Shown here piece by piece: positions 2,888-30,559 of a DNA stretch of 32,000 nucleotides (position 1 is the first letter of the stretch; every line of letters starts with the position of its first letter). The notes under the pieces are model-generated. The model ran no database searches, was not told the DNA's origin, and saw nothing but the letters and a program-made list of their open reading frames with translations. The stretch comes from Rhodobacter capsulatus SB 1003 (lineage in GTDB: Bacteria; Pseudomonadota; Alphaproteobacteria; Rhodobacterales; Rhodobacteraceae), in assembly GCF_000021865.1 (NCBI RefSeq), contig NC_014034.1, positions 2,970,001-3,002,000 on the forward strand, written 5' to 3'. A program made the translations under genes and the position numbers.

Positions 2888-4531
2888 ATGCCAGCAACTT
2901 TCATCACGACGGATTCCATCGGCGCAGGATACCAGTTCACCTTTTCCGCAAATGACGAGCAGCTGACCGTTCTGGCGGGCGCGACCCTCGGCTCGACGAC
3001 AACCTCGGCGATCCAGGCAACTTTCGCCACCGGCCTGAGCCTGTCGATCCTCGGCACGGTCTTTGGCGCACGCGGTCTGTATCTTTACGGAGAGGCGACA
3101 ACGGTGTCGATCGCCACGGGGGGCATGCTGCACACTTCGCAGCAGAACCCGATGGAGATTGGCGTTTACCTCGCCGGGACCGGATCAAGCCTGAGCAATG
3201 CCGGAACCATTTCCGCCCCGATGACCATTGGCGTGCTGTCTGCGGGCCACAACATGATCGTGAACACCGGGCGGATCGACGCGGCTTCCGCGGTGTTCAT
3301 GAACCTGTTTTCGGGCACCGGCGACAGGCTTGTCAACTCGGGCACGATCACGGCCAACAGCGCCTCGGACGGGTCGATGGACAATCGCTACAACAACGCC
3401 GTCTTCAACGAGGGCGGCAATGGCCGGATCACCAACCTGGCCGGGGGCGAGATGACCGCAATGTCCAGCGAGGGCGCCGGGGTGCGGCTGGGGGCCTATG
3501 GCGGCGGAACCGTGGTGCAGAATTTCGGCCAGATCACCTCGGCGCAGGATTGCGGCATCAACCTGGAAATGGTGAATGCCGGGCAGGCGCTGATCCGGGT
3601 GATGAATTACGGCACGATCACCGGCGGCGAGGCGGCCTTTCTGGGCAGCCAGAACGCCGATCTGCTGCTGAACTGCGGGCGGCTTGTCGGCGATGTGACA
3701 ATGGGCCTGGGGGCTGACACCCTGCGCAATGTCGGCGGCACCATCGACGGGGCGGTGCAGATGGGCGACGGGGCCGATCTGCTGATCAATTCGGGCGGGC
3801 GGATCCTTGGCGATGTCGTTCTGGGCGCGGGGGCCGATCGCTACGACGGGCGCAGCGGCGCGCTGGATGGCAGCGTCGATGGCGGCGCTGATGACGACAC
3901 CTTCATCGGCAATACCCTGGCGGCCGAGACTTTCAACGGCGGCGCGGGGCTCGATCTGCTCGACTTCCGTTTCGGCGCCGCGGTCACGGTGGCGCTGGAC
4001 GGCACCTTCGCCAATGACGGCGCGGCGCTGGGCGACAGCTACATCGGCTTCGAGAACATCCTCGGATCGCAGCGCGGCGACGTGATCCGCGGCTCGGCGG
4101 GCGACAACAGCCTTGCCGGGCTGGGCGGCGCCGACCGGCTCGACGGCGCGGCGGGCAATGACGCCTTCACCGGCGGCGCGGGCGCCGACACGCTGACCGG
4201 CGGGCTGGGCAACGACCTTTTCCGCTTCACCGCGCTTGGCGATTGCGGCGACGTGATCACCGATTTCGGCGCCGTCACCGGCAACAACGACTCGTTCCGG
4301 ATCGTGGCCTCGGCCTTTGGCGGCGGGCTTGCGACCGGCACCCTGGCCGGGTCGGCCTTCCTTGCCCGCAACGACAACCTGGCGCAGGACGCCAGCGACC
4401 GCTTCATCTTCCGCACCACCGACACGACGCTGTGGTTCGATGCCGACGGGTCGGGCGCGGGCGCGGCGGTGCTGGTGGCCGATCTGCAGGCGGGCGCGGC
4501 CCTGACTGCCGCCGATATCGTGCTGATCTGA
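2888..4531 (+). CDS. RTX (hemolysin-type Ca-binding nonapeptide repeat) protein with N-terminal beta-helix-like NxGxI repeats
   Basis: ATG at 2888 is preceded by AGGGGA and is in frame within ORF 2687..4531. The N-terminal two thirds carry periodic N-x-G-x-I motifs (NAGTISA, NTGRIDA, NSGTITA, NFGQITS, NYGTITGG, NCGRLVGDV, NVGGTIDGAV, NSGGRILGDV). These are followed by canonical GGxGxD repeats (GSAGDNSLAGLGGADRLDGAAGNDAFTGGAGADTLTGGLGNDLF) and a C-terminal TLWFDADGSGAGAAVLVADLQAGAALTAADIVLI tail typical of RTX proteins. Confidence 0.85.
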   Translation: MPATFITTDSIGAGYQFTFSANDEQLTVLAGATLGSTTTSAIQATFATGLSLSILGTVFGARGLYLYGEATTVSIATGGMLHTSQQNPMEIGVYLAGTGSSLSNAGTISAPMTIGVLSAGHNMIVNTGRIDAASAVFMNLFSGTGDRLVNSGTITANSASDGSMDNRYNNAVFNEGGNGRITNLAGGEMTAMSSEGAGVRLGAYGGGTVVQNFGQITSAQDCGINLEMVNAGQALIRVMNYGTITGGEAAFLGSQNADLLLNCGRLVGDVTMGLGADTLRNVGGTIDGAVQMGDGADLLINSGGRILGDVVLGAGADRYDGRSGALDGSVDGGADDDTFIGNTLAAETFNGGAGLDLLDFRFGAAVTVALDGTFANDGAALGDSYIGFENILGSQRGDVIRGSAGDNSLAGLGGADRLDGAAGNDAFTGGAGADTLTGGLGNDLFRFTALGDCGDVITDFGAVTGNNDSFRIVASAFGGGLATGTLAGSAFLARNDNLAQDASDRFIFRTTDTTLWFDADGSGAGAAVLVADLQAGAALTAADIVLI

Positions 4532-6082: not shown

Positions 6083-9000
6083 ATGAAACCGAACTTCGCC
6101 CTCAATCTCTCGCATGACGGAATCGGATTGCTTCACCGCGGCAAGAGCGGCTGGGAGCGGGTGGGCGAGGTGGCGCTGGACGCCCCCGATTTCGGCGAGC
6201 GGCTGACCGCGCTGCGCCGCGCCGCAAAGACGCGCGCGCCCGAGGGCGTGACCACGAAGATCGTCGTCCCCGCCTCGCAGATCCTTTACACCGAGATCAC
6301 CGCCCCCGGGCCGCAATCCGCCGTGCGGCGTCGGCAGATCGCCGATGCGCTGGAGGGGATGACGCCCTATGCGGTGCCCGATCTGGTCTTTGACTGGTGC
6401 GGTCAGGGCGAGGTGGTGCAGGTCGCCGTCGTCGCGCGTGAAACGCTTGCCGAGGCCGAGGCCTTTGCCGATGATTGCGGCTTCTTTCCGGTGTCCTTCG
6501 TGGCCGCCCCCGATCCGGCGCAATTCGCGGGCGAGCCTTGGTTCGGCATCACCACCACCGCCCCCGCGCATCTGCCGCAGGGCGCAAGGATCGAACGCGA
6601 CACCGAGGCGCTGCCGCTGGATCTGCTGCACGCCGCCGCCGCTCCGGTCGCCCCCGCGCCTGAACCCGAACCTGCGCCCGCGCCCGCGCTTCAACCTGCG
6701 CCCGAACCCGCGCCCGAGATTTCGCCTCCGGCGCAGGCGCTGACGCCCCCGGCCCCGGCGCAGACCGCGCCCGAACCGCCCGCCGCCAAACCCGCGGCAG
6801 AGGTCGCCCCCGTCAAGGCGCCCGCGGCAGAGGCCGCCCCGATCCCGACCGAACCGACCCCGGCCGCCGACCCGAAACCGGCCCCGAAACCGGCGCAAAA
6901 ACCCGCCGCCAAACCCGCGCCTGAACCGGAAAAGGCCGCCGCCCCGGTTGCCCCGGCCACGCCCGCGACGGAGGCCGCAGAGGCCCCGGCCGCCGCGCCG
7001 AAGCCTGCCAAGCCGCAAGCCGCAGAGCCGCCGAAAGCCGCGGAGCCCACGCCGCCCGCCCCCGCCGCGCCGAAAGCGAAGCCCGAGCCGCAACCGAAGC
7101 CCGCGCCGCAACCGACGCCGGAAGCGCAGGGCAAGCCGGAAGCGCAGGCCAAGTCCGAGCCGCAGCCCAAGCCGCAACCGAAGCCGGAGGCCCAGTCCAA
7201 ACCGGACCCCGCCCCGAAAGCGCCCGCCGCCAAGGCGGAGACCCCGGCCCTGGCCGAGAAGGGCCTCGATCTGCTGGCGGCGCTGGAAGAAACGCAGCTG
7301 AGCGGCATCGACACCGTGCCGCCGCTGAAGATCGACATGCCCGAGGCCCCCGCCGCCGCGCCGCGTCCGGGCGATGCCGCCCGCGCCGGGGCTGCGGCCC
7401 GCAAGCCGCTGCCGGGCGCGGCCCGTCCCGGAACGACGCCCGACGGCGCAGACAGCGCAAAACCCGCGCCGCGCAAACCGCTGCTGGCCGAGACCGACCG
7501 CCCCGCTTCCGCCGCCGCCGACCCGGCCGCGCCGCTCAGGCAACCGGACCTGCCCGCCGCCGCCGAGGCCCCCGGCGCGACCGAGCCCTTGCGCAAGATC
7601 GCCGAGGACGGGCGCCGTCTGGCGGCGCTTGGGGCGGCGGCGCTCGAGACGACCGCGAGCAAGGCGCTGGCCAAGGCGCGCGACCTGCGTCCGGGCGCGG
7701 CCACGGCCGAGCCCTCCGCCGCCGAGGCCGCGCCCGAGGCCGATCCCGCAGAGGCGCGGACGGTTTTCGGCGCCCGCAAGACGCCCCGGATCGGCGGCAA
7801 GCCGAAATACGTGGGCGTGACGCTGCTGGGCGGGCTGGTGGCCTTCCTGGCCATCGCCGCGCTGTGGTCGAGCTTCCTGATCGAGCCCGAGGCCCCGACC
7901 GAGGCCCCGGCCCCGACCGAGGCGATCGCCACCGCCCCCGCGGCGCCGGACGCCACACCCGAAGCCGCCACCGCCCCGCAGGCGCCCGCCCCGACACCGC
8001 CCGCAAGCCCGGCGACGGATGCGGTCCCGGCGACGGACACGCCGCCCGAACCGACGCCGCCCGCGACGGCGACGCCCGCCCCCGAAACGCCTGCGCCAGA
8101 GACGCCCGCGACTGCGACGCCCGCCCCTGAAACGCAAGCCCCCGCGGCGGAAGCGCCCCTGACGCTGCCCGCGCTGCCGACCCTGCCGCCGCTCACGACG
8201 CCGCCCGCGGCAACGGCCCCCGAGGGTCAGCCGCCCGTTCAACCGGCCGTCCCGGGGGCTCCGGCCGCCGCGCAGGCGACGCCGAGCCGCGACGGCACGC
8301 TGACCGCCGAGGGCTTCACCCTGTTCGAGGGCACGCCGCCGTCGAAATCGAAACCGCGGCCCGCCTCGGTCAGCCGTGCCGCGACGGAAGCCGCCGAAGC
8401 GGCCGCGGCCCCGCCCGCCGATCCGGCGCTGAAAAACGCCCGGCCGAAAGCCCGCCCGGCCTCGGTCGCGGCGGCTGCGGCGAAAGCGGCCGCGACCCCG
8501 CCCGCCGCCACGGAGCCCGCAACGCCCCCCGGCGAGGCCGCCCCGGCCGCCAGCCCCGAGGAGGGCGCGCTGCTGGCCCCGGGCCTCTCGCCCGATCTGG
8601 CGCGGGTGCTGCGCCGGGCGCAGCCGAAGGAACGGCCCGGCTCGGTCGAACGGCGTGCCGCTGCCGCGCTGGCCGAGGCCGAGGCCGCGAAAGCCGCCGC
8701 CGAGACGGCGCTTGCCGCGGAAACCGCCGCGGCAGAGGCCGGGCTCGCCTCCTCCCGCCGTCCGATGACGCGGCCGCGCAATTTCGAAGCCTCGGTGCAA
8801 AGCGCGCTGGCCGCCGCCATCGCCGCCGAACCGCCGCCCCCGGCGCGCGTCGCCGCGGTCGAGCCCGCCCCCGTCGCGCCGGAAAAACCCGTCCGCGCCA
8901 AGCCCTCGCCGCCGCCCGAACCGACGGTGATTTCCGGCCCCGATGTCGAGACCGGCGAGGTCGAATCCGCCGCGGTGATCCCGCGCGGGCCCACCGCCGC

Positions 9001-9241
9001 CTCGGTCGCGCGCGAAGCGACGCAAAAGAACGCGCTCGATCTGAACAAGATCTCGCTGATCGGGCTTTACGGCACCCCCGGCAGCCGCCGCGCGCTGGTG
9101 CGGATGCCGAATGGGCGCTTCTTCAAACTGCAGGTCGGCGACCGGATCGATGGCGGCCGCGTCACCGCGATCGGCGACAGCCAGATGACCTATCAGAAGG
9201 GCAACCGCCCGATCACGCTCAAGCTGCTCAAGGGCGGTTGA
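6083..9241 (+). CDS. 1052-aa Pro/Ala-rich single-pass membrane protein with globular N- and C-terminal modules
   Basis: ATG at 6083 with AAGG upstream and normal GC3-rich codon usage. Layout: globular N-terminal ~165 aa (MKPNFALNLSHDGIGLLHRGKSGWERVGEV...), long P/A/E/K low-complexity tracts, one TM segment (YVGVTLLGGLVAFLAIAALWSSFLI), and a C-terminal beta-rich module (ISLIGLYGTPGSRRALVRMPNGRFFKLQVGDRIDGGRVTAIGDSQMTY). The fully overlapping antisense ORF is rejected. Confidence 0.8.
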   Translation: MKPNFALNLSHDGIGLLHRGKSGWERVGEVALDAPDFGERLTALRRAAKTRAPEGVTTKIVVPASQILYTEITAPGPQSAVRRRQIADALEGMTPYAVPDLVFDWCGQGEVVQVAVVARETLAEAEAFADDCGFFPVSFVAAPDPAQFAGEPWFGITTTAPAHLPQGARIERDTEALPLDLLHAAAAPVAPAPEPEPAPAPALQPAPEPAPEISPPAQALTPPAPAQTAPEPPAAKPAAEVAPVKAPAAEAAPIPTEPTPAADPKPAPKPAQKPAAKPAPEPEKAAAPVAPATPATEAAEAPAAAPKPAKPQAAEPPKAAEPTPPAPAAPKAKPEPQPKPAPQPTPEAQGKPEAQAKSEPQPKPQPKPEAQSKPDPAPKAPAAKAETPALAEKGLDLLAALEETQLSGIDTVPPLKIDMPEAPAAAPRPGDAARAGAAARKPLPGAARPGTTPDGADSAKPAPRKPLLAETDRPASAAADPAAPLRQPDLPAAAEAPGATEPLRKIAEDGRRLAALGAAALETTASKALAKARDLRPGAATAEPSAAEAAPEADPAEARTVFGARKTPRIGGKPKYVGVTLLGGLVAFLAIAALWSSFLIEPEAPTEAPAPTEAIATAPAAPDATPEAATAPQAPAPTPPASPATDAVPATDTPPEPTPPATATPAPETPAPETPATATPAPETQAPAAEAPLTLPALPTLPPLTTPPAATAPEGQPPVQPAVPGAPAAAQATPSRDGTLTAEGFTLFEGTPPSKSKPRPASVSRAATEAAEAAAAPPADPALKNARPKARPASVAAAAAKAAATPPAATEPATPPGEAAPAASPEEGALLAPGLSPDLARVLRRAQPKERPGSVERRAAAALAEAEAAKAAAETALAAETAAAEAGLASSRRPMTRPRNFEASVQSALAAAIAAEPPPPARVAAVEPAPVAPEKPVRAKPSPPPEPTVISGPDVETGEVESAAVIPRGPTAASVAREATQKNALDLNKISLIGLYGTPGSRRALVRMPNGRFFKLQVGDRIDGGRVTAIGDSQMTYQKGNRPITLKLLKGG
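7117..7152 (+). repeat. 18-bp in-frame tandem repeat x2 (PEAQGK/PEAQAK) inside the Pro/Ala-rich gene
   Basis: GCCGGAAGCGCAGGGCAA (7117-7134) is followed directly by GCCGGAAGCGCAGGCCAA (7135-7152), identical at 17 of 18 positions. Similar short in-frame repeats occur at about 8060-8140 (TATPAPET units). Confidence 0.7.
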
Positions 9242-12734: not shown

Positions 12735-12940
12735 GGCCGAGGCCATCGCCGAGGCCGCGCGCGACAGAAGCCCCGTGACCCCCGAGGGCCCAAAGGCCCT
12801 CGGGCAGCGCCCGCCCCGCCCCTGGCGGGCGCTTCTCGCCCGCCGGGCCGGGCGCTGCCCTCTGTCGCGCCTGGGGAAACGGTCTTGTCACCGCCGCTGC
12901 GGCACGGGCGGGGAAAGGCGATGCCTTTCCCGATCCGCCC
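12735..12940 (-). repeat. ~205-bp structured intergenic repeat, copy A (minus orientation)
   Basis: The reverse complement aligns by hand with 18032-18245 and 30343-30550. A 50-nt core (CGCCCGGCCCGGCGGGCGAGAAGCGCCCGCCAGGGGCGGGGCGGGCGCTG) is identical to copy B. It contains the hairpins GGAAAGGC-ATC-GCCTTTCC, AGCGCCCGCC..GGCGGGCGCT and CCCGAGGGCC-CAAA-GGCCCTCGGG. It starts about 20 nt 3' of the S4-protein stop. Confidence 0.8.
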
Positions 12941-12961
12941 GAAACCGGTGATGGCAACGGA

Positions 12962-13240
12962 TCACTCCCCCGCCGCGTCGATCAGCGCGTAGAGCGTCAC
13001 GGCTTCCGGCGCGGGGCCGCGGCGCGTGCCGCAGGCCAGGATGCGCAGCACGCGCACCTCGGCGCCCAGAACCAGCGTCAGCACGTCGCCCGGGCCGACC
13101 GCACGGCCGGGCTTTTCAAGCTTCTGCCCGTTCACCCGCACCCGGCCCGCGGTGACCAGATCAACGGCCAAGGCGCGGCTCTTTGCGAACCGCGCCTGCC
13201 AAAGCCATTTGTCGATGCGGATGCGATCGCCTTCAGACAA
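12962..13240 (-). CDS. S4-domain RNA-binding protein (Hsp15/HslR-like)
   Basis: 92-aa ORF with the S4 motif RIDKWLWQARFAKSRALAVDLVTAGRVRVNG. It starts 3 nt after the helicase stop on the same strand. Confidence 0.8.
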   Translation of the reverse strand: MSEGDRIRIDKWLWQARFAKSRALAVDLVTAGRVRVNGQKLEKPGRAVGPGDVLTLVLGAEVRVLRILACGTRRGPAPEAVTLYALIDAAGE

Positions 13241-13243
13241 GGG

Positions 13244-16087
13244 TCAAAGCTTGCCTTTCAGCCCCATCAGCGCCGCCGCAAACGGGTTGTCGGGATCGAT
13301 CGGCTTGTCCTTTTTCGGCGGATGCGATTCGAAGCCGCGGCCACGGTCGTCCTGCGGCTTGCCCTTGCCCCAGGGCTTGCCGCCCTTCGGCCCGCCCTTG
13401 CCGCCCTCGCCACCGAACTTGCGCTCGCCGCGCGGGCCATCCTCGTCGCGATGGCGCGGCTTGCCGCCCTCGTGACGCTTCTCGCCGCCCTTGTGATCAC
13501 CGCCGCGGTCACCGCCGCGATCACCGCCCTTGTGCGGACGGTCGCCGCCCTTGTGATCGCCACCGCGGGCCTCGCGCGGGCCGCGATGGCCCTCGCCGCC
13601 GCCTTCGCGCGGTTCGCGACGCGGGCCGCGTTCGGTGCGCGGACGCGGCGCCCAGGCGAAGGTGTAAAAGCTCTCCATCTCGACCGGAACGGCTTCCACC
13701 TCGGCCTGCGCCTCGGCGATCGGCGAGGCTTCCTCGGGGATCGGATTGTCCGAGCCCGCCTCGGGCGCCTTTGCCTCGACCACGGGTTTCGCCTTTTCGC
13801 GTTCGCCCTTTTCGGCGCGATAGCCCAGCCCGCCCATCAGATCGGCGAATTGTTCCAGCGTCATGCCGGTGATCGACAGCATGTCCGGCGTGGCTTCAAA
13901 GCCTGCCTTGCTGTCTTGCGTGCGCAGCATGTCGGCCAGCCGCTCCAGCATGTCGATGCGGATCGCCCGCACCCCCGCCGGACGATAGCCCGAGCGCGTA
14001 TAGGCCGAGACCGGCACTTCCGCGATATAGGGGATCGTCACCAGACCGGGCGGCGGGCTTTCGGGGAATTCGGACAGCCCGTCCCAAAGCGAGGCCAGCA
14101 CCAGCCGCAGCCGCGTCGGCGCGGGTTTCAGCAACAGCTGCTGGAAGATCGTGTATTGGCCAAAGCGCACGCCATGCTTGCGCAGCGCGCCGCGGGCCTC
14201 CTGATCCAGCTCCTTGACCTCGGCCGCGACGCCCTCGCGCGGCAGGATGCCCATATGCTCGACCAGCCGGAAGGCAAAGCCGCGGGCCAGACCCGTCAGC
14301 GCCTCGTCGCGGCTCATCGCCAGAAGCGGCTCGAAGAGCGCGGCGATCTTGCGGTCGATGAAATGCTGCAGACGGCGGCGGACCTTTTCGGCAACCTCGG
14401 GACCGGCTTCCTCGTCGACGAAGGGCTCGACCGCGGGTTTCAGCGGATCGGCGCCCTTCACCAGCTTGCCCACCGCCTGCGTGCCCCACATCAGCCCGCC
14501 TTGCTCGGTGAAATCCATCTCGGTGTCGGGGGCATTGTAGAAGCGGTCGGACCGCAGGCTGAATTCGGGCTTCAGCGCCTCATAGGCGGCCCGCGCCAGC
14601 ATCTTCGCCTCGTCGGGCGAGGACGTGGTGTCCTGCCGGAAGCGGAAGCCCTCAAGACGGCCGGCGAATTCGCCTTCGACCATCACTTCGCCCTTGTCGT
14701 TCACCTCGGCCACGAGGGTCTCCTTCTGCTTGAGCCGCCGCAGCAGAACACTGGTGCGCCGGTCCACAAATCGTTGGGTCAGCGCGCCATGCAGCGCATC
14801 CGACAGGCGGTCTTCTACAGCGCGCGTCTCTTCGCGCCAATGGGTTTCGTCATCCACCCAGCCTTTGCGTTGCGCAACATAGGTCCAAGTGCGGATGAAG
14901 GCGAGACGTTTCGACAAAGTGTCGATATCGCCCGAGGTCCGGTCGATGCGTTCGATCTGGGATTTCAGCCAGTCCGAAGGCACGCCCTTGCCCGTCTGCA
15001 AAAAGCCGAAGATGCGCGCCAGAAGGGTCGCATGTTCGGTTTCGGAAATCGAGCGGAAATCGGGGATGCGGCAGGTCTCCCACAACAGCCGCACATCGGC
15101 GGGGGCGCGGACGCGGTCGCGGATCTCGGGCATCTCCGACAGGCTTTTGAGCGCGCGCAGATCATCGGCCTCGCGGCCGCGGCTGAGCCATTCGTTCTGC
15201 GGGCTTTCCTCGAGCGACTGGATCAGCCGCGGCACGGTGCCGAATTCAAGCCGCGGATTGCGCCATTGCAGCCGCTGGATCGGCGCGAAGCGATGCTCCT
15301 CGATCGCCTCGATCACCTCTTCGGGCAGGGGATGCGCCTCGCCGGTGATGCCAAAGGTACCGTCCGTCGTGTGCCGCCCGGCCCGGCCCGCGATCTGGCC
15401 CAGCTCATGCGGGAAGAGATGCCGCATCCGCCGGCCGTCGAACTTCGCCGTGGCGGAAAAGGCGACATGTTCGATGTCGAGGTTCAGCCCCATGCCGATC
15501 GCATCGGTGGCGACGAGGTAATCGACATCGCCATTTTGATACATCGCCACCTGCGCATTGCGGGTGCGGGGCGAAAGCGCCCCCATCACCACCGCCGCGC
15601 CGCCCTTTTGGCGCCGGATCAGCTCGGCGATCGCATAGACATTTTCAACCGAAAAGCCCACGATTGCCGCCCGTGGCTTCATCCGGCTTATCTTTTTCGA
15701 ACCTGCCCAGGAAAGTTTGGACAAACGCTCGCGCCGGGCGAATTGCACTTTCGGAACCAGCGCCGCGATGGCGCCCTTCATCGCATCCGAGCCCAGAAAC
15801 AGCGTCTCGTGCAACCCGCGCATGTACAAAAGACGCTCGGTGAAGACATGGCCGCGCTCGGGATCGGCGCAAAGCTGGATCTCGTCGATGGCAACGAAAT
15901 CGGCGCCCACTTCGGGCATCGCCTCGGTGGTGCAGACCCAGTATTGCGCCCGTTCGGGAACGATCCGCTCCTCGCCCGTGACCAGCGCCACGACCGAAGG
16001 GCCGCGCGCTTTCACGATGCGGTCATAGACCTCGCGCGCCAGAAGCCGCAGCGGCAGGCCGATCACCCCGGTGCGGTGCGAGAGCAT
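13244..16087 (-). CDS. SUV3-like superfamily 2 ATP-dependent (RNA) helicase, large ORF lacking its Walker A segment; basic Gly/Arg-rich C-terminal tail
   Basis: 947-aa ORF with helicase motifs AIDEIQL (II), VATDAIGMGLNLD (V) and QIAGRAGR (VI). The C-terminal ~135 aa is rich in GGDHKGG/GGDRGG repeats. The P-loop is encoded upstream, beyond an in-frame TAG (see next feature). Confidence 0.85.
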   Translation of the reverse strand: MLSHRTGVIGLPLRLLAREVYDRIVKARGPSVVALVTGEERIVPERAQYWVCTTEAMPEVGADFVAIDEIQLCADPERGHVFTERLLYMRGLHETLFLGSDAMKGAIAALVPKVQFARRERLSKLSWAGSKKISRMKPRAAIVGFSVENVYAIAELIRRQKGGAAVVMGALSPRTRNAQVAMYQNGDVDYLVATDAIGMGLNLDIEHVAFSATAKFDGRRMRHLFPHELGQIAGRAGRHTTDGTFGITGEAHPLPEEVIEAIEEHRFAPIQRLQWRNPRLEFGTVPRLIQSLEESPQNEWLSRGREADDLRALKSLSEMPEIRDRVRAPADVRLLWETCRIPDFRSISETEHATLLARIFGFLQTGKGVPSDWLKSQIERIDRTSGDIDTLSKRLAFIRTWTYVAQRKGWVDDETHWREETRAVEDRLSDALHGALTQRFVDRRTSVLLRRLKQKETLVAEVNDKGEVMVEGEFAGRLEGFRFRQDTTSSPDEAKMLARAAYEALKPEFSLRSDRFYNAPDTEMDFTEQGGLMWGTQAVGKLVKGADPLKPAVEPFVDEEAGPEVAEKVRRRLQHFIDRKIAALFEPLLAMSRDEALTGLARGFAFRLVEHMGILPREGVAAEVKELDQEARGALRKHGVRFGQYTIFQQLLLKPAPTRLRLVLASLWDGLSEFPESPPPGLVTIPYIAEVPVSAYTRSGYRPAGVRAIRIDMLERLADMLRTQDSKAGFEATPDMLSITGMTLEQFADLMGGLGYRAEKGEREKAKPVVEAKAPEAGSDNPIPEEASPIAEAQAEVEAVPVEMESFYTFAWAPRPRTERGPRREPREGGGEGHRGPREARGGDHKGGDRPHKGGDRGGDRGGDHKGGEKRHEGGKPRHRDEDGPRGERKFGGEGGKGGPKGGKPWGKGKPQDDRGRGFESHPPKKDKPIDPDNPFAAALMGLKGKL

Positions 16088-16099
16088 CCGCTCGATCGC

Positions 16100-16156
16100 C
16101 TAATGTGTCTTGCCGGTGTTCGTCGGCCCAAGGACCGCGGTGATCCGCCCCGTCAT
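16100..16156 (-). pseudogene. orphaned 5' segment of the helicase gene: 18 codons with Walker A, ended by an in-frame TAG
   Basis: The reverse strand from CAT at 16154-16156 reads MTGRITAVLGPTNTGKTH then TAG (16102-16100), then AIER and the M at 16087, all in one frame. A strong Shine-Dalgarno sequence (AGGAGG, within GCAGGAGGAATGCG) sits 5 nt upstream of this ATG, not of the 16087 ATG. Confidence 0.75.
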
Positions 16157-16174
16157 CGCATTCCTCCTGCAGGC

Positions 16175-18021: not shown

Positions 18022-18031
18022 CCGGCCGCCC

Positions 18032-18245
18032 GGGCGGAGAAGGAAAGGCATCGCCTTTCCCCGCCCGCAGCGCCCCCTGGTCGAAAGACCGTTTCCGCGA
18101 GGCACAACAGAGGCCGGCGCCCGGCCCGGCGGGCGAGAAGCGCCCGCCAGGGGCGGGGCGGGCGCTGGCCGGGACGCTTTGGCGCCCCGGCGGTCCCGGG
18201 GCCGGTGTCGCGCGTGACCTCGGCGATGGCCTCGGTCATGGCCCG
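18032..18245 (+). repeat. ~205-bp structured intergenic repeat, copy B
   Basis: Begins 10 nt after the hydrolase stop. Hairpins: GGAAAGGC-ATC-GCCTTTCC (18042-18060), AGCGCCCGCC/GGCGGGCGCT (18139-18166), GCCGGGACGC-TTTG-GCGCCCCGGC (18168-18191). Aligns with copies A and C. Confidence 0.8.
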
Positions 18246-24284: not shown

Positions 24285-25460
24285 ATGGGCTGGGGCAAAG
24301 GCATCGGATGGGGCCTGGGCGGGGCCGTGATCCTGGCGGCGGGGGCCTTCTTCGCCCTTGCCCCCGGCATCGTCGAGCGGGGGCAGAACCGGGTCGTGCC
24401 GCATGAGCCCTGGCCGGTCTCGGCGCAGGCGGCGGCGCTGCACAAGACGCTCGTCATCGGCGATTGGCATTCCGATGCGCTTTTGTGGGACCGGGATCTG
24501 CTGACGCGGTCCGACCGCGGCCATGTCGATCTGCCGCGGCTGCGGGCGGGCAATGTGGCGGTGCAGGTCTTCACCACGGTGACGAAAACCCCCGCCGGGA
24601 TGAATTACGACCACAATGCCAAGGACGCGCGGGACAACATCACGCTTCTGGTGATGGGGCAGTTGCGGCCGGTGCGGAGCTGGTTCAGCCTTGCCGAACG
24701 CGCGCTGGATCAGGCGGCGCGGCTGCGGGCGATAGCCGAGGCGGCGCCCGATCAGCTGGTGGTGGTGCGGCGGGCGGGGGATCTCGACCGGGTGCTGGCG
24801 GCGCGGGCGCAAGGCGCGCAGACCGTGGCCGGGATTCTGGGCGCCGAGGGCGGTCATGCCCTGGAAGGCCGGATCGAAAATCTGGATCGGCTTTACGACG
24901 CCGGGTTTCGGCTTCTGGGGCTCACGCATTTCTTCGACAACGAACTGGGCGGCTCGCTGCATGGCGAGGATGACGCCGGGCTGACGCCCTTCGGGCGGCA
25001 GGTGGTTGAAAGGATGGTGCAAAAGCGCATGGTGATCGACCTTGCCCATGCTTCGGAACCGATGGCGCGCGAAGTGCTGGCGATGCCGGGCACGCGGCCG
25101 ATCGTCAGCCACGGCGGCATTCACGGCGTCTGCCCGGTGAAGCGCAATTTCCCCGATGCGCTGATGCGGGAGATCGCGGCGAAAGGCGGTCTGATCGGGA
25201 TCGGCGCCTGGGCCGAGGTGACCTGCGACGCGACGCCCGCGGGCGTGGCCCGGTCGATCGTGGCGGCGGTGCGACTGGTGGGCGAGGATCACGTCGCGCT
25301 CGGCTCGGATTTCGACGGCGCGGTCGAGACGGAATTCGACAGCTCGGAACTGGCGGCGCTGACGCAGGCGTTGCTGGATGCGGGGCTGAGCGAGAGCGTG
25401 ATCGCCAAGGTCATGGGCGGCAACATGATCCGCTATCTGCGCGAGACGCTGCCGCAGTAG
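24285..25460 (+). CDS. membrane-anchored dipeptidase, peptidase family M19
   Basis: 391-aa ORF with N-terminal TM (GLGGAVILAAGAFFALA). M19 motifs: GDWHSDAL (HxD), GAEGGHAL, IDLAHAS, GSDFDG. Confidence 0.85.
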   Translation: MGWGKGIGWGLGGAVILAAGAFFALAPGIVERGQNRVVPHEPWPVSAQAAALHKTLVIGDWHSDALLWDRDLLTRSDRGHVDLPRLRAGNVAVQVFTTVTKTPAGMNYDHNAKDARDNITLLVMGQLRPVRSWFSLAERALDQAARLRAIAEAAPDQLVVVRRAGDLDRVLAARAQGAQTVAGILGAEGGHALEGRIENLDRLYDAGFRLLGLTHFFDNELGGSLHGEDDAGLTPFGRQVVERMVQKRMVIDLAHASEPMAREVLAMPGTRPIVSHGGIHGVCPVKRNFPDALMREIAAKGGLIGIGAWAEVTCDATPAGVARSIVAAVRLVGEDHVALGSDFDGAVETEFDSSELAALTQALLDAGLSESVIAKVMGGNMIRYLRETLPQ

Positions 25461-25461
25461 G

Positions 25462-25679
25462 GGAGCAGGATTTCGCCTCGCTTGCGCGAGGCGACCCGCC
25501 GGGGGCTTCGCCCCCGGACCCCCAAGAGGCGTATTTTGCCAAGGAAAACCCCTTCGGTTGCCGCCCCGCAACCCGTCGGCGGCCCAGCGCCCTGCTTTTC
25601 CTTGGCAAAATACGCCGGGGGGTGCGGGGGGCGGAGCCCCCCGCGGGTCGCCCCGGCTTGCCGGGGCGAAATCCCCCGC
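25462..25679. repeat. ~218-bp near-perfect palindromic, multi-hairpin intergenic element (MITE/REP-like)
   Basis: Fills the whole gap between the convergent stops at 25460 and 25680. Perfect 21-bp inverted repeat GGCGTATTTTGCCAAGGAAAA (25528-25548) / TTTTCCTTGGCAAAATACGCC (25596-25616). The outer arms also pair (GGATTTCGCC../..GGCGAAATCC). Each arm has its own 9-bp hairpin (25473-25494 and 25648-25669). Confidence 0.8.
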
Positions 25680-30329: not shown

Positions 30330-30342
30330 GATCGGTCCCTTC

Positions 30343-30550
30343 GGGCGGATCAGGAAAGGCACCGCCTTTCCCCGCCCGCGGCACGACGCGGATGAAACGA
30401 CCGCATCCCCGAGCACGACGAGAGGCCAGCGCCCAGCCCCGGCGGGCGAGAAGCGCCCGCCATGGGCGGGGCGGGCGCTGGCCGGGACGCTTTGGCGCCC
30501 CGGCGGTCACGGGACATCTGTTTCGCATGGCCTCGGCGATGGCCGAGGCC
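30343..30550 (+). repeat. ~205-bp structured intergenic repeat, copy C
   Basis: Begins about 14 nt after the ubiK terminator. Contains GGAAAGGC-ACC-GCCTTTCC (30353-30371), GCCGGGACGC-TTTG-GCGCCCCGGC (30481-30504) and a terminal GGCCTCGGCGATGGCCGAGGCC palindrome (30529-30550). Aligns with copies A and B. Confidence 0.8.
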
Positions 30551-30559
30551 AGATCAGCG

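Follow-up and report, generated by a model that had tools for sequence, protein, structure and literature searches.

An in-frame stop codon near the start of the SUV3-like helicase gene in the Rhodobacter capsulatus SB 1003 reference sequence is most likely a sequence error

Amongst the closest described relatives of the gene considered here are those for the mitochondrial RNA helicase SUV3 (SUPV3L1 in human). SUV3 orthologues were recognised in Rhodobacter as early as 1999 (cited in PMC2800237), and ATP-dependent unwinding is known for the eukaryotic homologues only (PMC2800237). In human SUV3, the Walker A mutation G207V abolishes ATPase as well as helicase activity (PMC2800237). Here we examine the SUV3-like DExQ-box helicase gene of R. 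capsulatus SB 1003 (SB1003), which occupies positions 13244-16156 on the minus strand of a stretch of 32,000 nucleotides (contig NC_014034.1, positions 2,970,001 to 3,002,000); this whole stretch is referred to as the window, and all positions are given within it. The gene comprises 970 sense codons and a terminal TGA, with a sole interruption, an amber codon at codon 19. This TAG is most likely a base-call or clone error of the SB1003 reference assembly, and the real gene is most likely an ordinary, intact member of the SUV3-like family already known from Rhodobacter.

Domain searches were carried out with the reconstituted protein of 970 residues, in which Tyr takes the place of the stop. 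Residues 4-114 matched PF22527 (DEXQc_Suv3) with an E-value of 2.3e-24 and 86.1 bits (cut-off 27), and a match to PF00271 (Helicase_C, E-value 3.9e-9) indicated the presence of the C-terminal RecA-like domain. Amongst solved structures, yeast Suv3 (6f4a) was matched at an E-value of 1.8e-33 and human SUPV3L1 (solved structures include 3rc3) at 3.6e-31. The core shared with SUV3/SUPV3L1 consists of the Walker A motif GPTN(T/S)GKT, motif II DEIQ and motif VI QIAGRAGR. In the window the Walker A motif (motif I) reads GPTNTGKT (residues 10-17; 16106-16129, minus strand) and aligns to GPTNSGKT of yeast Suv3, motif II, the DExQ box, reads DEIQ (residues 91-94; 15875-15886, minus strand), and QIAGRAGR of motif VI spans residues 254-261 (15374-15397, minus strand). 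With a Suv3 domain, the DExQ box, motif VI and Helicase_C, the protein is, as judged from its domain content, a SUV3-like DExQ-box helicase of superfamily 2. Unlike SUV3/SUPV3L1, however, the bacterial protein is much longer (970 residues) and possesses a large uncharacterised C-terminal region and a tail rich in Gly, Arg and Lys, and in the window the TAG parts its P-loop from the remaining protein. An earlier reading of this DNA, made from its letters alone (hereafter the sequence-only reading), had placed the gene in a conserved cluster in the order TPR, helicase, S4, ferredoxin and CarD; Pfam hits on syntenic R. capsulatus loci bear out this neighbourhood.

Direct reading of the minus strand from the ATG at 16156-16154 yields 18 sense codons, encoding MTGRITAVLGPTNTGKTH, and then TAG at 16102-16100, with the Walker A motif upstream of the stop, exactly as the sequence-only reading had it. 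The codons run ATG ACG GGG CGG ATC ACC GCG GTC CTT GGG CCG ACG AAC ACC GGC AAG ACA CAT TAG GCG ATC GAG CGG ATG, the last of these being the ATG of Met24 at 16087-16085. After the TAG the same frame thus continues with AIER and this second ATG, which begins an open reading frame (ORF) of 947 codons that remains open to the TGA at 13244. The Walker A motif is consequently split from the helicase core by a stop two codons further on, whereas in all relatives the two are contiguous. An AGGAGG Shine-Dalgarno sequence is indeed present upstream of the first ATG (16163-16168, minus strand), as had been claimed, although the spacer is 6 nucleotides (AATGCG) and not the 5 that were stated. This ATG (16154-16156, minus strand) is the start common to the relatives P0121, P0004, P0005 and P0006, and it is invariant in all eight aligned sequences. 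In contrast, the ATG at 16087 was correctly described as having no Shine-Dalgarno sequence of its own; the only candidate, a GAG at -6 to -4, is not credible. It is nevertheless the start of the deposited model of 947 residues (P0127), which is devoid of the P-loop. Since the 18 upstream codons encode exactly the residues of the orthologues and the PF22527 match begins at residue 4, the frame that the TAG interrupts is genuine and the stop did not arise in it by mere misreading of non-coding DNA. A promoter and terminator scan around the TAG site found nothing relevant.

Codon 19 is a sense codon in all 98 loci compared, encoding Tyr in 72, His in 23 and Phe, Cys and Glu in one each. In a nucleotide alignment of seven relatives, TAC or TAT stands opposite the TAG of the window; the closest relatives have TAC, including all eight of the near-identical loci considered below (L084-L091), and some others have TAT. 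The discrepant base is position 16100, where the plus strand carries C in the window and G in all relatives. The occurrence of a sense codon in every locus confirms the proposal that a Tyr codon was converted to amber by a change of one base. A protein database search returned thousands of full-length relatives, the best 120 matches covering 81-100% of the full-length query. The sequence-only reading gave GKTHYAIERML for homologues, correctly, and MTGRITAVLGPTNTGKTHY was found in all six of the top matches that were read, five of which begin at or upstream of the equivalent ATG. A scan of species-representative genomes assigned the window to R. capsulatus, with 97-98% protein identity for SP108, DSM 1710 and SP36. 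The orthologue alignment called for in the sequence-only reading therefore had a clear outcome: orthologues carry the N-terminal P-loop and do not start at the equivalent of the Met at 16087.

A full-length R. capsulatus orthologue is P0121, a protein of 970 residues annotated as 'helicase-related protein' (ETD00755.1, ETD75386.1 and ETE52816.1). It is identical to the window frame at 969 of 970 residues, the sole difference being Tyr19 (TAC) in place of TAG, and it has the same start codon and gene neighbourhood as the window. Records of P0121 comprise 69 blocks on 58 contigs (NCBI, Logan and ENA); complete genomes account for three of these contigs, and numerous others are short ones from Logan. 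We take ETD00755, ETD75386 and ETE52816 to be Y262, R121 and DE442 from the accession series of Ding et al. All three strains derive from B10, which is also the parent of SB1003 (PMC3924369), and if the accessions are so assigned, the presence of P0121 in all of them implies that TAC was already present in the ancestor common to the lineage.

The window was compared using BLAST with the eight near-identical loci and every difference was listed. These loci comprise CP198954.1, CP198940.1 and CP198942.1 (complete), one ENA contig and four Logan contigs of ~5 kb (SRR4051179, SRR4051164, SRR18021777 and SRR18021783). Over 22.9 kb, CP198954.1 and the window share 99.94% identity. Eight substitutions, at 3819, 7811, 12999, 14495, 16100, 17766, 17809 and 21515, are private to the window, and none is private to CP198954.1. 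At all eight sites the base not found in the window is common to every locus that covers the site, even in the more divergent CP198940.1. Two affect the helicase gene itself: TAC to TAG at 16100 (minus strand), which turns Tyr19 into a stop, and a synonymous change at 14495 (minus strand; Gly554, GGG versus GGC). In the S4-domain gene downstream of the helicase (12999, minus strand) the window encodes Val81 where all close relatives have Ala, and in the alpha/beta-hydrolase gene (plus strand) one change is synonymous (17766) and the other gives Val243 in place of the Leu of relatives (17809); the window alleles at 12999 and 17809 each occur on one contig. The remaining three are D to V in a HemolysinCabind-type protein (3819), M to V (M577V) in an ORF of 1052 residues at 6083-9241 on the plus strand (7811), and N to D in an ATP-grasp protein (21515).

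In total six of the eight private substitutions alter a protein, one of them by introducing the stop, and two are synonymous, a proportion that would be expected without filtering by selection. In CP198940.1, many of the differences from the window fall at intervals divisible by three; this spacing, and not a codon classification, suggests that they lie at third-codon positions. Four of the eight private substitutions are transversions, and three of these are G/C exchanges in GC-rich context, the amber site (TACGCG to TAGGCG) included. G/C miscalls of this kind are typical of Sanger compressions, and amongst spontaneous mutations G:C to C:G is believed to be the rarest class. The other seven private differences probably share the origin of the TAG.

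In exact-sequence look-ups across contig collections, the window product of 947 residues (P0127) was found on a single contig only, from NCBI and 3,738,958 bp in length, and the window alleles of this helicase product and of the S4, hydrolase and ATP-grasp proteins each occur on that one contig. None of these four alleles was found in Logan, ENA or JGI by exact look-up. Of the alternative alleles, that of the S4 protein is recorded on 55 contigs, that of the hydrolase on 99 and that of the helicase on 58, and neighbours unaffected by private differences are similarly widespread (TPR protein on 86 contigs, SCP2 protein on 137, KefB-like antiporter on 93 and Alpha-E protein on 138). The TPR protein served as a positive control: amongst the 23 contigs read, all 23 continue with the helicase of 970 residues or, where the contig ends early (L098), with a fragment of it, and the 947-residue model stands next to the TPR protein in none. 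Taken with the protein cluster look-ups, this control shows that the absence of the window products is specific to their alleles.

Many of the matching contigs are pieces of 2-10 kb from sequencing runs and resemble transcriptome assemblies. SB1003 is stated as the wild type by several laboratories that have deposited R. capsulatus RNA-seq data, and the short Logan contigs are inferred to include runs from SB1003 itself. A full-text literature search found no paper naming the run accessions SRR4051164, SRR4051179, SRR18021777 or SRR18021783, and it is from their dates and strain usage that a link of the Logan runs to projects of the Bauer laboratory is suggested. As SB1003 is the wild type in several deposited datasets and no other contig with the private alleles was seen, it is hard to explain how these alleles could be present in circulating SB1003.

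On these grounds we infer a technical cause for the TAG. While the reference sequence was being produced, one base, C to G on the gene strand, would have turned TAC into TAG, the source being either a miscalled base in GC-rich DNA or an alteration in a clone used for sequencing. The living strain lineage would then probably be without the TAG, its real gene being an intact 970-codon gene for a SUV3-like ATP-dependent helicase that starts at the ATG at 16156, downstream of a strong Shine-Dalgarno sequence, and has Tyr19 just past the Walker A loop, and the 947-residue model from Met24 would be a consequence of the error. An allele unique to one assembly, accompanied by other private differences that look unselected, is what such an error should leave, and both features are found here. 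A pseudogene, in contrast, should show its lesion in independent data from the same strain lineage, and the lesion is present on one contig as against 58 with the full-length protein. The present case is akin to the single-base errors in finished bacterial genomes of the Sanger era that create apparent pseudogenes, in that the lesion occurs in one assembly alone, has private companions that look unselected and is contradicted by later high-coverage assemblies from the same lineage; it differs in that it is known from assembled contigs and not from reads or traces. Discrepancies between the reference and laboratory stocks are, moreover, on record, since MT1131, a derivative of SB1003 sequenced at ~300x, differs from CP001312.1 by ~385 single-nucleotide polymorphisms and indels (Ekici et al. 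2014, PMC3903287).

Several points nevertheless weigh against a technical origin. All of the evidence consists of assembled contigs. The Logan runs, including SRR4051164, SRR4051179, SRR18021777 and SRR18021783, may come from another B10 derivative, and should CP198954.1 represent the ancestral strain B10, its lack of private changes would be uninformative. The density of eight differences in 23 kb is ~3 times the genome-wide value implied by the 385 of MT1131. Finally, a real mutation in the sequenced isolate or cosmid would give an identical pattern in these data. Even with these points taken into account, error is the favoured one of the four explanations that had been listed for the stop, and gene loss, readthrough and reinitiation are without support.

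Amongst the alternatives, a real nonsense mutation, confined to the isolate of SB1003 behind the reference or to stocks of this strain and making the helicase a recent pseudogene, is unlikely. The TAG does stand in the deposited sequence, and the remaining gene is intact and identical to P0121, as expected of a very recent lesion. However, the TAG, the 947-residue product and the seven other private alleles are on no other contig, although ~55-99 contigs of the same lineage carry the corresponding regions, and eight private differences in 23 kb scale to more than 1,000 genome-wide, which is unexpected for a B10 derivative that arose spontaneously in the laboratory. In addition, three of these differences are transversions of the G/C class that is believed to arise most rarely. 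With a real TAG, the ribosome would stop after 18 residues; at best, with an in-frame ATG 12 nucleotides beyond the stop, reinitiation at 16087 would give a P-loop-less, ATPase-dead protein, and that ATG lacks a Shine-Dalgarno sequence. By analogy with G207V, which inactivates human SUV3, a product that starts at Met24 and lacks motif I would be inactive. It is quite improbable that the TAG is real and that SB1003, of all R. capsulatus laboratory strains the most widely used, is a natural knock-out of this conserved alphaproteobacterial SUV3-like helicase or makes a P-loop-less, possibly dominant-negative form via Met24.

Far less credit can be given to the idea that programmed readthrough or a suppressor transfer RNA (tRNA) decodes the amber codon, so that the full-length helicase is made. 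Although the frames on either side of the TAG are intact and conserved, the stop is kept in none of the 98 loci and TAC is present even in sequences that are 99.9% identical. TAG also serves as the ordinary stop of a neighbouring gene (24285-25460), and the sole tRNA within the window, which was the extent of the scan, is a tRNA-Tyr with the normal GTA anticodon. This tRNA-Tyr was found by ARAGORN at 1496-1579 on the plus strand. An Rfam scan of the whole window at the gathering threshold returned no hits at all, not even the tRNA-Tyr; because it missed this gene, its null result carries little weight against recoding.

That the deposited model is correct, with a start at Met24 and a non-coding P-loop-like stretch upstream, is hardly credible: the GenBank model P0127 and a RefSeq model of SP108 (P0132, 946 residues) do begin at this Met, but MTGRITAVLGPTNTGKTHY in all six of the top matches read, the 81-100% coverage of the full-length query by the best 120 matches and the start of the Pfam DEXQc_Suv3 alignment at residue 4 all contradict it.

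The SP108 record merits separate mention. Its RefSeq model, WP_249306546.1 (P0132), begins at the equivalent of Met24 and is without the Walker A loop. The DNA of SP108 (L002, 2868-3048) is open, with TAC, and the GenBank model TKD15409.1 (969 residues) begins at the true ATG. Independent truncation of the helicase in this second strain was considered and rejected, as P0132 is the 969-residue SP108 protein minus its first 23 residues; together with the open DNA, this leaves only the choice of start site by the annotator. The start site of WP_249306546.1 thus appears to be misannotated, and the truncated model of SB1003 may be where the mistake was propagated from. The same region differs between strains by an indel of 14-16 bp (GCGAGGnCGGGCAG), which separates the ATG of the helicase from the Shine-Dalgarno region (window 16157-16162 versus L001, L002, L004, L082 and L083). 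The GCGAGGnCGGGCAG insertion is absent from the window and from DSM 1710 and present in SP108, SP36 and several metagenomic relatives, and in relatives that have it gene callers push the helicase ORF 7-12 codons upstream.

Some further observations concern the surroundings of the gene. The window contains three copies of a GC-rich dispersed repeat of ~210 bp (12735-12943, minus strand; 18031-18238, plus strand; 30340-30551, plus strand), which share 83-87% identity; the first two sit between genes. Several perfect hairpins occur within the repeat; the fold of one copy has a z-score of -3.6 against shuffled sequences, and no Rfam hit was obtained. Some other R. capsulatus strains have a different variant in place of the copy that lies between the S4 and ferredoxin genes. 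The repeat could be an element resembling repetitive extragenic palindromes (REP) or miniature inverted-repeat transposable elements (MITE), or a family of small RNAs. A 6-bp in-frame indel (GGCGGC) distinguishes the window (25496-25501) from CP198954.1 in otherwise identical surroundings. Compared with all the other close relatives, CP198942.1 has numerous single-base G/C indels, through which several genes are fragmented or fused; the ORF of 1052 residues, for example, falls into pieces and the hydrolase reaches 394 residues, a pattern which resembles uncorrected homopolymer errors of long reads. In the window this ORF (6083-9241, plus strand) lies in a stretch of ~75% GC, and no Pfam hit is recorded for its orthologues. 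Its exact window sequence is absent from the protein collection; it carries M577V, and the deposited model may start elsewhere.

The annotation of the gene is directly affected by these results. The 947-residue model lacks the ATP-binding loop and should give way to the 970-residue protein with Tyr19, and a faulty helicase start is present in at least two records (SB1003 and SP108). The same 23-kb stretch of the reference holds seven further private differences, five of which change residues in neighbouring proteins, and such discrepancies are to be expected wherever variant calling or construct design is based on the SB1003 reference. If the TAG were real, the standard laboratory strain would be without a relative of the mitochondrial SUV3 helicase, one that is conserved throughout Rhodobacterales; this could colour the RNA-metabolism phenotypes reported for SB1003 and would be relevant to work on RNA decay in R. 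capsulatus.

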